The translations under genes were made by a program, and so were the position numbers. Positions 42,145-44,031 of a stretch of 64,000 nt of DNA are shown here, one piece after another. Under the pieces are notes generated by a model. That model was not told the origin of the DNA, did no database searches, and saw nothing but the letters and a program-made list of their open reading frames with translations. The stretch lies in assembly GCF_003790525.1 (NCBI RefSeq), contig NZ_CP033635.1. The stretch is one strand, 5' to 3'. The DNA is from Escherichia coli. Lineage in GTDB: Bacteria; Pseudomonadota; Gammaproteobacteria; Enterobacterales; Enterobacteriaceae. Each line of letters begins with the position of its first letter. The first letter of the stretch is position 1.

Positions 42145-43041
42145 TTACGGTACGTCGTAACCCAATGCCGCTTTACGGATACGGAACCATTGTTGACGGG
42201 TCATTTTCAGTGTTTCAGCTTCGACAGCTGCCCGTACGCGCTCAATTTTACCTGAGCCGATAATTGGCAGCGGCTGCGACGGTAAACGTAATACCCAGGC
42301 GTAAACCACCTGTTCAATCGAGCCCGCGTTTAACTCCTCCGCCACCACAGCCAGTTCATCACGCAGCGGCTGGAAATAATCATCATTAAACAGACGACCA
42401 CCACCAAGGCAGGACCACGCCATCGGACGAACACGCAGTTGTTGCAGTTGGTCGAGCGTGCCATCCAGCAGTAACGGCTGATGCACCGGGGATATTTCCA
42501 CCTGATTAGTGGCAAGGGTAAACGGCAGGCGTGATTGCAACAGGGCAAATTGCGCGGGCGTGAAGTTGGATACGCCAAAATGGCGCACTTTGCCGCTCTG
42601 ATGCAGATGTTTAAACGCGTCCGCCACTTCATCGGCATCCATTAACGGGTCTGGTCGGTGGATTAACAGCAGATCCAGATGATCGGTCGCGAGATTAATT
42701 AGCGACTGTTCGGCGCTCTTAATGATGTGATCGCGGTCAGTGATGTAATGACCAATGACGTTTTCTTCACGCGCGGTCGTCGCGATACCGCATTTACTGA
42801 CGATTTCCATCCGTTCACGCAGGTGAGGTGCCAGTTTCAGCGCCTCGCCAAACGCCGCTTCGCACTGATAGCCACCATAAATATCAGCATGGTCCACGGT
42901 GGTCACGCCGAGATCCAGATGCTCTTCAATAAAACTGACCAGCTGGCGGGCGGACATATTCCAGTCCATCAATCGCCAGTAGCCCATCACAAAACGGGAA
43001 AACTCCGGGCCTTGCGGCGCAATAGTAATACGCTGAACCAT
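42145..43041 (-). CDS. ydhF: Aldo-keto reductase family oxidoreductase YdhF
   Basis: 298 aa; AKR fold. Confidence 0.85.
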   Translation of the reverse strand: MVQRITIAPQGPEFSRFVMGYWRLMDWNMSARQLVSFIEEHLDLGVTTVDHADIYGGYQCEAAFGEALKLAPHLRERMEIVSKCGIATTAREENVIGHYITDRDHIIKSAEQSLINLATDHLDLLLIHRPDPLMDADEVADAFKHLHQSGKVRHFGVSNFTPAQFALLQSRLPFTLATNQVEISPVHQPLLLDGTLDQLQQLRVRPMAWSCLGGGRLFNDDYFQPLRDELAVVAEELNAGSIEQVVYAWVLRLPSQPLPIIGSGKIERVRAAVEAETLKMTRQQWFRIRKAALGYDVP

Positions 43042-43089
43042 AATCGCTTCCTCTTATCAGATATGAGAGGAGTATACGCAAGATTAGGC

Positions 43090-43329
43090 TCAAAAGAGTG
43101 ATGGTTGCTCCGGTTCATCTGATGACGCCGGCTTATTTGCACGTAATTTGCGCATTAATCGCTGCCGACAAAGGCGCAGTACCTCTTGTTTTTCGCCATC
43201 GCTCATTTTATTCCAGTTAAAACGCTCATCCCGACTGCGAAAGCAGCCGCGACAAAATCCGCGTTCGTCAGACTGGCAAATTCCCCGGCACGGGCTCTGG
43301 ACGGGAAAGAACTCTAATTGCTCCGCCAC
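43090..43329 (-). CDS. ydhL: Cys-rich DUF1289 protein YdhL
   Basis: 79 aa from a GTG at 43329 preceded by a strong GAGGAGG Shine-Dalgarno sequence; CRGIC...CRGC motif; the tracked 136-aa ORF is an upstream extension. Confidence 0.75.
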   Translation of the reverse strand: MAEQLEFFPVQSPCRGICQSDERGFCRGCFRSRDERFNWNKMSDGEKQEVLRLCRQRLMRKLRANKPASSDEPEQPSLF

Positions 43330-43401
43330 TTCGCCCTCCTCAGATAAGATTATTACCACTATTGAAGCTGTTAATGCCCAAAGTAGCAACTTTGCTTGCA
43401 C

Positions 43402-43417
43402 TAGACCGACTGGTCTA
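43402..43417. promoter_or_regulatory. NemR box: perfect 16-bp palindrome TAGACCGACTGGTCTA
   Basis: Perfect palindrome 15 bp upstream of the nemR start codon, in the ydhL-nemR divergent region. Confidence 0.8.
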
Positions 43418-43431
43418 CTACACTCCAACGC

Positions 43432-44031
43432 ATGAACAAACACACCGAACATGATACTCGCGAACATCTCCTGGCGACGGGCGAGCAACTTTGCCTGCAA
43501 CGTGGATTCACCGGGATGGGGCTAAGCGAACTCCTAAAAACTGCTGAAGTGCCGAAAGGGTCCTTCTATCACTACTTTCGCTCTAAAGAAGCGTTTGGCG
43601 TTGCCATGCTTGAGCGCCATTACGCCGCATATCACCAGCGACTGACTGAGTTGCTGCAATCCGGCGAAGGTAACTACCGCGACCGCATACTGGCTTATTA
43701 CCAGCAAACACTGAACCAGTTTTGCCAACATGGAACCATCAGTGGTTGCCTGACAGTAAAACTCTCTGCCGAAGTGTGCGATCTGTCAGAAGATATGCGT
43801 AGCGCGATGGATAAAGGCGCTCGCGGCGTGATCGCCCTGCTCTCGCAGGCGCTGGAAAATGGCCGTGATAGCCATTGTTTAACCTTTTGTGGCGAACCGC
43901 TGCAACAGGCACAAGTGCTTTACGCACTGTGGCTGGGTGCGAATCTGCAGGCCAAAATTTCGCGCAATTACGAGCCACTGGAAAACGCGCTGGCACATGT
44001 AAAAACCATTATTGCGACGCCTGCCGTTTAG
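43432..44031 (+). CDS. nemR: TetR-family electrophile-sensing repressor NemR
   Basis: 199 aa TetR family; first gene of nemR-nemA-gloA. Confidence 0.95.
   Translation: MNKHTEHDTREHLLATGEQLCLQRGFTGMGLSELLKTAEVPKGSFYHYFRSKEAFGVAMLERHYAAYHQRLTELLQSGEGNYRDRILAYYQQTLNQFCQHGTISGCLTVKLSAEVCDLSEDMRSAMDKGARGVIALLSQALENGRDSHCLTFCGEPLQQAQVLYALWLGANLQAKISRNYEPLENALAHVKTIIATPAV

Follow-up and report, generated by a model that had tools for sequence, protein, structure and literature searches.

Two questions are raised by the small gene ydhL of Escherichia coli, namely whether it shares the control of the repressor gene nemR, from which it is divergently transcribed, and what its cysteine-rich product does in the cell. 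Both are addressed here in a stretch of 64,000 nucleotides (nt) of E. coli chromosomal DNA (NCBI RefSeq assembly GCF_003790525.1, contig NZ_CP033635.1), referred to as the window, in which ydhL and the intergenic region up to nemR occupy positions 43,090 to 43,431. The gene is part of the E. coli 'y-ome', and its family, DUF1289, comprises about 1,300 representative clusters in public data for which function and structure are lacking. The best explanation combines an annotated gene, a predicted promoter of its own, a probable metal-binding site of four cysteines and two termini that may dock on the beta sliding clamp; as a whole it is as easy to credit as to doubt, and its parts differ in strength. 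The gene and the NemR operator were already known, while a predicted independent ydhL promoter, the geometry of the nemR promoter, the pairing of ydhL with ydhF and a lead toward the clamp are added here. The comparison also yields promoter predictions that are open to experiment, both for ydhL and for nemR, whose transcript is probably leaderless.

Identity and start codon of ydhL

RefSeq annotates ydhL as 240 nt encoding 79 amino acids (aa) and a stop codon, at the coordinates given in Table 1. They coincide with the form proposed by a sequence-only reading of this locus, in which a GTG behind the Shine-Dalgarno sequence GAGGAGG opens the C-terminal 79-aa part of a longer, 136-aa open reading frame (ORF). 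Both the annotation and the comparison across genera agree with that proposal, and the ribosome-binding site with its 5-nt spacer can be read directly in the DNA. Several complete E. coli genomes match an 801-nt query at the ydhL locus with 100% identity, and 5,424 of 5,426 complete genomes of the species contain the greater part of it. The protein is identical to that of K-12 MG1655 b1648 (1,725,681-1,725,920), and all eight nucleotide differences between the two coding regions are synonymous.

The comparative set consisted of 80 Enterobacterales loci with a ydhL orthologue, ranging from Escherichia to Yersinia, Erwinia and Photorhabdus. The homologous start codon is GTG in 69 loci, ATG in 9 and TTG in 2, and nearly all of them carry GGAG, GGAGG or AGGAG 5-9 nt 5' of it. 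Every one of the 78 distinct orthologous proteins is exactly 79 aa long. That ydhL is a known annotated gene translated from the GTG at 43329 into 79 aa can be regarded as settled for all practical purposes. The observation is far beyond chance, yet it concerns an annotated gene beside an already described operator.

Predicted promoter of ydhL and its relation to NemR

A sigma70 promoter is predicted upstream of ydhL, with the pattern TTGnnn-17 nt-TTCA[AC]T present in 65 of the 80 loci, at 29-32 nt from the start codon in 60 of these, and a TTGA[AC]T variant of the -10 hexamer in 4 more. The pattern is kept whether the upstream neighbour is nemR, a 545-aa EptA-like gene (Lelliottia, Buttiauxella, Yersinia) or a LysR gene. 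A generic promoter and terminator scan returned nothing at its threshold of 9/12; the predicted promoter scores 8/12 and is seen through conservation only.

NemR is the electrophile- and HOCl-sensing TetR repressor of nemRA-gloA (PMC3739934, PMC5297802). Its operator, TAGACCGACTGGTCTA, is the sole exact match to TAGACCN4GGTCTA in the window, and none of 100 shuffled sequences contains one. Across 66 loci with the box, its distance to the nemR start codon is 13-15 nt in 63 (extremes 11-19), the six nucleotides before it read TTGCAT, TTGCAA, TTGCGC or TTGCAC, and nucleotides 2-7 after it read TAnnnT. These flanking hexamers and the fixed distance to the start codon indicate that the operator is the 17-nt spacer of the nemR promoter. 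The nemR messenger RNA is probably leaderless, because the ATG follows the predicted -10 hexamer by only 7 nt in the window (6-8 nt across loci) and no Shine-Dalgarno sequence precedes it. In K-12 coordinates the predicted ydhL TSS (transcription start site) corresponds to 1,725,945, and that of nemR, predicted at window position 43431/43432, to 1,726,022/3. In honey-evolved E. coli, a parallel G->A mutation was reported at (-84/-19) (PMC8127710 supplement), which corresponds to position 43413 of the window; the base belongs to the operator's right half-site (GGTCTA), and the change looks like an operator-constitutive mutation. Having been selected for methylglyoxal/honey resistance, it is consistent with operator control of nemRA-gloA and with derepression of gloA.

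The divergence of ydhL from nemR, with the palindrome between them, is as the sequence-only reading had described it; its suggestion that ydhL is co-regulated through the same box fares less well. In such an arrangement ydhL would be repressed by NemR and induced along with nemRA-gloA when electrophiles or HOCl are present. The geometry in Escherichia, Citrobacter and Salmonella lends this some appeal, since the box ends 12 nt upstream of the ydhL -35 hexamer and the two -35 hexamers lie 6 bp apart. The same holds for the resistance to H2O2 and HOCl on ydhL overexpression and for the flanking stress genes sodC, ydhF, nemA and gloA. Against it, the operator spans -63 to -48 relative to the predicted ydhL TSS, centred at about -55 and upstream of the -35 hexamer; it does not overlap the core promoter (-35 to +1) and fits exactly into the nemR spacer instead. 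Depending on the locus, anything between 69 nt and 3.5 kb separates it from ydhL, no box is found near ydhL where an EptA-like or LysR gene separates the two genes or where nemR is absent, as in Photorhabdus, and the linkage of operator and ydhL is not conserved across species. Genomic SELEX (systematic evolution of ligands by exponential enrichment) identified nemR as the single NemR target, and regulon tables give nemRA-gloA alone (PMC5934670). The literature searched gave no report of ydhL as a NemR-regulated gene.

Conserved co-regulation is thus unsupported, as the box travels with nemR while ydhL keeps its own predicted promoter. It is probable that ydhL has this promoter and no conserved NemR control, and a shared operator is unlikely. 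The comparison removes a tempting and probably wrong inference, that a divergent gene beside an operator must be co-regulated. Three points weigh in the other direction. The ydhL promoter and its transcription start site (TSS) are themselves predictions; the footprint of a TetR-type protein, if broader than the 16-bp palindrome, could reach to about 6 bp from the ydhL -35 hexamer, making some NemR effect in E. coli possible; and a methylglyoxal-induced RNA polymerase segment, mapped at low resolution by chromatin immunoprecipitation (ChIP) on microarrays, spans 60% of ydhL. This segment is the sole datum that might point to co-induction, and at its resolution a signal spilling over from the nemR promoter, 100 bp distant, would look the same. 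A modest local effect of NemR on ydhL in Escherichia, Citrobacter or Salmonella is considered improbable.

The arrangement resembles tetR/tetA and acrR/acrAB, divergent loci in which a single operator region governs both promoters; shared with them are a TetR-family autorepressor divergent from its neighbour and a palindromic operator in an intergenic region of about 100 bp. It differs from them in that the NemR-regulated genes nemA and gloA follow nemR within one operon, the single operator is confined to the nemR core promoter, and ydhL appears to keep its own promoter wherever nemR lies.

A sigma54 ChIP site, IA14 (CTGGTTCAGTGTTTGCT; PMC4591121), was considered as a conserved ydhL promoter and rejected. 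It lies at 43703-43719 on the minus strand, antisense within nemR and directed at ydhL from 363 nt away; it is not conserved outside Escherichia, the GC of its -12 element being CC in most other genera. In E. albertii and E. whittamii (loci L003 and L005), an insert of about 120 bp is located some 30-150 nt upstream of ydhL, in the 5' untranslated region between the conserved -10 hexamer and the Shine-Dalgarno sequence. The nemR-ydhL intergenic region is thereby extended to 222-226 bp, with the promoter still beside the NemR box. Judged by eye against the ERIC consensus, the insert is a putative ERIC/IRU-like repeat.

Cysteine core and predicted fold of YdhL

Residues 12-57 of YdhL match Pfam DUF1289 (PF06945) over profile positions 1-46 of 47, scoring 69.3 bits where Pfam's gathering cut-off is 27 (E=2.4e-19). 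The translation carries the four cysteines of the core CRGICQSDERGFCRGC in the spacing C14-x3-C18-x7-C26-x2-C29, so the cysteine-rich DUF1289 protein with a CxxxC...CxxC motif announced by the sequence-only reading is confirmed, its suggestion of metal or Fe-S binding is reasonable in view of the four invariant cysteines, and its description of the function as unknown was judged correct. YdhL is the name-giving member of the family (COG3313, 'predicted Fe-S protein YdhL'), sharing with it the full-length match, the four invariant N-terminal cysteines and the small size. A search of 1.84 billion representative proteins returned 1,316 relatives at E <= 1e-3, and P13, C14, C18, C26, C29, R31, E35 and W39 are invariant in a diverse alignment of 76 sequences. 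An AlphaFold2 model built with this alignment has a mean predicted local distance difference test score (pLDDT) of 82, with about 90 in the core and about 63 at the termini, which have no secondary structure. The confident core covers residues 11-65 and consists of a cysteine knuckle, a helix at 33-41 and a strongly basic helix at 44-65.

The four-cysteine site quite probably binds a metal. Judged by the invariant residues, it is compatible with zinc and with an Fe-S cluster alike, and the core would hold either structural zinc or a redox-labile Fe-S or zinc site. No solved structure of any YdhL relative was found, the literature searched gave no biochemical report, and the NCBIfam and PADLOC libraries contain no match for YdhL. 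In copies from phages (PaBG and huge uncultured phages), only the core domain is matched. Other architectures were seen among distant homologues (P0144, P0220, P0199, P0235 and P0255), one in which DUF1289 comes first, then a hydrophobic segment and, at the C-terminal end, a bacterial SH3_3 domain, and another with a tandem double DUF1289 that lacks Q-x-x-L-F motifs.

Terminal Q-x-x-L-F motifs

Both ends of YdhL carry a related pentapeptide, within the segments MAEQLEFFPVQ at the N-terminus and ASSDEPEQPSLF at the C-terminus. The N-terminal EQLEFF is invariant in Enterobacterales orthologues, Oceanospirillales- and Pseudomonas-like forms have DQGELF, and Q-x-[ED]-[LFIM]-F stands 6-7 aa before the first cysteine in 117 of 138 distant representatives. 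At the extreme C-terminus, QP[ST]LF is invariant among the 78 orthologues, and the linker residues 66-71 are conserved to 20-40% only. An invariant peptide beside a variable linker reads as a classic signature of a short linear motif.

Distant homologues extend this observation, with low-complexity C-terminal tails of about 15 to more than 200 residues. Of 124 tails, 55 contain the strict pattern Q..[LM]F, with 93 copies in all, whereas 1000 composition-preserving shuffles give an expectation of 2.2 and a maximum of 9. Motif positions 2 and 3 were left free in the search, and they hold L (22), F (18), A (11) or I (7), followed by D (51) or S (19), the latter two accounting for 75% of copies. 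The convergence of these free positions on QL[SD]LF indicates a canonical clamp-binding motif that was not imposed by the search pattern. Among the 55 motif-bearing tails, 38 end 0-1 residue after the motif. In 12 of the 55 a single residue follows the phenylalanine (DMFS, DLFG), and internal copies are common, so a free phenylalanine carboxylate is not required. Long disordered tails contain 2-4 copies, including QADMF, QLGLF, QLDLF and QLSLF.

The motif-bearing subfamily includes Enterobacterales, Vibrio cholerae, Thalassolituus, a marine Pseudomonas metagenome-assembled genome and Thorsellia. More distant DUF1289 proteins lack the terminal motifs, which therefore define a gammaproteobacterial subfamily. 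Exposure in an unstructured segment and conservation amid variable flanks were both found, and the termini are quite probably functional short linear motifs. In three Thalassolituus and marine Pseudomonas-like loci (L082, L088 and L089), the YdhL homologues are 228-243 aa long and carry 2-4 QxDLF copies, and a gene for a 70-aa cold-shock-domain protein lies about 100 nt upstream on the same strand.

The beta sliding clamp as putative partner

The clamp-binding motif has been described as QL[S/D]LF and in revised form as Q-phi-x-[L/M]-[F/L], and QADMF is the motif of the Pol III alpha subunit (bioRxiv 10.1101/2025.08.20.671105). The YdhL family consensus, Q[LFAI][DS]LF, matches the QL[SD]LF of clamp clients, and some homologues carry literally QADMF, QLGLF, QLSLF or QLDLF. 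This identity of the tail consensus with the clamp motif led to the proposal that the YdhL termini dock on the beta sliding clamp. The likeness to known clients (Hda, Pol II and Pol IV, as well as Pol III alpha with QADMF and QVELEF) lies in a terminal Q...LF/MF pentapeptide that is unstructured and conserved amid variable flanks. Dalrymple and colleagues reportedly listed, in 2001, QLSLPL at the N-terminus of Hda, QLGLF at the C-terminus of Pol II and QLVLGL at the C-terminus of Pol IV. YdhL differs from these clients in having no known DNA-metabolism domain, and its clamp binding is putative; a motif at both ends, with extra copies in the tail, is also unusual.

In the proposed mechanism, QLEFF (residues 4-8) and QPSLF (residues 75-79) would dock into the hydrophobic cleft of the clamp (DnaN). 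The four-cysteine core with its basic helix would form a metal/redox module with a motif on either side, long-tailed forms carrying as many as four copies. By occupying or bridging two clamp clefts, YdhL could modulate the traffic of replication and repair, and would thus act as a small clamp-associated factor in DNA replication or repair under oxidative or electrophile stress. As the partner of the terminal motifs, the clamp is a serious candidate whose probability falls a little below even. Tentatively, YdhL together with related gammaproteobacterial proteins (from Enterobacterales, Vibrio, Oceanospirillales and Pseudomonas-like taxa) may constitute an unrecognised class of small clamp-binding proteins that bridge or occupy the clefts. 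If so, a small metal-dependent factor would join the short list of bacterial clamp partners, tied to oxidant and quinolone tolerance.

Published phenotypes are compatible with a role in stress or replication. On overexpression from the ASKA collection, ydhL was among 20 clones growing at three times the minimal inhibitory concentration (MIC) of H2O2 and was one of 27 genes that scored for H2O2 as well as HOCl; a consistent retest in MG1655 was reported for the set of genes at three times the MIC (PMC8228696). The Keio ydhL deletion reduced ciprofloxacin tolerance (PMC13131330). In TraDIS (transposon-directed insertion-site sequencing), ydhL was listed among genes with unexpectedly few insertions, 'essential only by TraDIS' (PMC5821084). 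The low insertion count contrasts with the viable and phenotyped Keio deletion. A clamp-binding class, if real, would account for the oxidant resistance, the lower ciprofloxacin tolerance and the shortage of insertions.

Several observations weigh against clamp binding. The E. coli peptides each deviate from the revised consensus at one position, QPSLF having proline at the aliphatic position and QLEFF having phenylalanine where leucine or methionine is expected. The phenotypes fit a thiol sink, slow growth or small-gene statistics equally well. Around the homologues of Vibrio, Thalassolituus, marine Pseudomonas and Thorsellia, no gene of replication or repair recurs; the sole recurrences are the gloA-rnt synteny seen in both Thorsellia and Photorhabdus and, upstream of long-tailed forms, a cold-shock-domain gene. 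Hu et al. (2009) reported no physical partner for YdhL, only the context link to ydhF, and no interaction data for YdhL and DnaN were found in the literature. An AlphaFold2 fusion, DnaN-(GGGGS)6-YdhL, was built with a linker-anchored block alignment and a DnaN sequence that matches PDB 1MMI at 366 of 366 residues. It reached a predicted template modelling score of 0.39, with pLDDT 40-80 in the clamp and at most 50 at the YdhL termini. The clamp itself was poorly modelled, owing to only 13 DnaN rows at 88-93% identity, and the model says nothing either way.

Alternative roles of the protein

The genomic context invites another role, in which YdhL would serve the aldo/keto reductase YdhF as a metal or redox accessory, for example an electron carrier, maturation factor or regulator, and its motifs would bind YdhF or YdhL's own core instead of the clamp. 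A same-strand ydhF begins 47-59 nt after ydhL in most of the 80 loci, Yersinia, Erwinia and Pantoea among them, and the generic scan found no terminator-like site between the two genes. Transcription of ydhL probably reads through into ydhF, as conservation of the pairing suggests. Hu et al. (2009) placed both genes in one genomic-context module, and some databases name YdhL homologues 'oxidoreductase' or 'Fe-S oxidoreductase'. Judged by gene order, the conserved partner of ydhL is ydhF. An accessory role is nevertheless doubtful, since both motifs persist in homologues from Vibrio, Thalassolituus and marine Pseudomonas that have no aldo/keto reductase gene beside them, and the clamp-like consensus would be left unexplained. 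In addition, GCGTATACTC is kept across genera while its flanks vary; it lies in the 48-nt spacer, 29 nt before the ydhF ATG, and its TATACT is probably the -10 hexamer of an additional internal promoter, which suggests that ydhF has a promoter of its own too. To our knowledge, aldo/keto reductases need no metal partner.

The motifs might instead address another hub, as a degron for a protease or adaptor or as an acidic, phenylalanine-ending tail that binds OB-fold partners in the manner of the single-stranded DNA-binding protein tip, or the N-terminal copy might be part of the fold. Acidic or proline-rich stretches precede the motif in the tails, many of which stop exactly at phenylalanine, reminiscent of C-terminal recognition tags; the imperfect E. 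coli copies and the absence of a docking signal in the fusion model also leave room for this idea. It is hard to reconcile with the residue after phenylalanine in 12 of 55 tails and with the frequent internal copies, and a third position of D or S in 75% of copies with L, F, A or I mostly at the second is the clamp consensus. We know of no other bacterial hub with such a consensus. A different hub is accordingly rated quite unlikely, and the clamp stays the preferred, if tentative, partner.

That the 136-aa ORF (43090-43500, minus strand, with a TTG start at 43500 inside nemR) or another upstream start gives the true product has a negligible chance and is effectively refuted already: although the ORF is open in the window strain and over-long homologues of 87-125 aa are annotated in some public records, the additional part would be read antisense to the promoter and 5' end of nemR, the upstream frame meets a stop within 0-10 codons in most genera and after only 16 open codons in another E. 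coli (L004), the Pfam domain and all conservation start after the GTG, and all alternative starts are located upstream of the predicted TSS at 43354. In the window's lineage the long frame stays open by accident.

Feature coordinates and gene neighbourhood

Table 1. Coordinates of features at the ydhL locus in the window.
Feature	Position	Strand	Details and basis
ydhL coding sequence	43090..43329	-	GTG start 43329-43327; ORF, translation, RefSeq, Pfam, orthologue length
ydhL Shine-Dalgarno GAGGAGG	43335..43341	-	5-nt spacer GCGAA, then GTG; direct sequence reading
Predicted ydhL sigma70 promoter	43361..43389	-	-35 TTGCTA (43389-43384), 17-nt spacer, -10 TTCAAT (43366-43361); predicted TSS ~43354
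NemR operator palindrome TAGACCGACTGGTCTA	43402..43417	.	Between ydhL and nemR
Predicted nemR promoter	43396..43424	+	-35 TTGCAC (43396-43401), box + 1 nt as spacer, -10 TACACT (43419-43424)
nemR, TetR-family repressor	43432..44031	+	ORF; Pfam TetR_N, TetR_C_13; RefSeq
QLEFF, residues 4-8, clamp-binding-motif-like	43306..43320	-	N-terminal; translation
Cys4 core CRGICQSDERGFCRGC codons (C14, C18, C26, C29)	43243..43290	-	Translation
QPSLF, residues 75-79, clamp-binding-motif-like	43093..43107	-	Extreme C-terminus; translation
GCGTATACTC, putative -10 (TATACT) of internal ydhF promoter	43070..43079	-	Cross-genus conservation, inference
ydhF, aldo/keto reductase	42145..43041	-	Pfam Aldo_ket_red E=5.5e-47; downstream same-strand partner of ydhL

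In the window, ydhK, sodC, ydhF and ydhL lie on one strand, and nemR, nemA, gloA, rnt and lhr are divergent from them. A search of positions 42900-43600 against Rfam gave no match to an RNA family. In Photorhabdus, ydhL is divergent from gloA, and both nemR and nemA are absent. In Lelliottia, Enterobacter, Buttiauxella, Yersinia and Erwinia (L013, L026, L060, L072 and others), nemR and ydhL are separated by a gene, on the strand of nemR, for a membrane protein of about 545 aa; the N-terminus of the protein reads 'KLQCND..F.L' and is EptA-like by eye. In some loci (L059, L063), a LysR-type gene is present in this interval as well.

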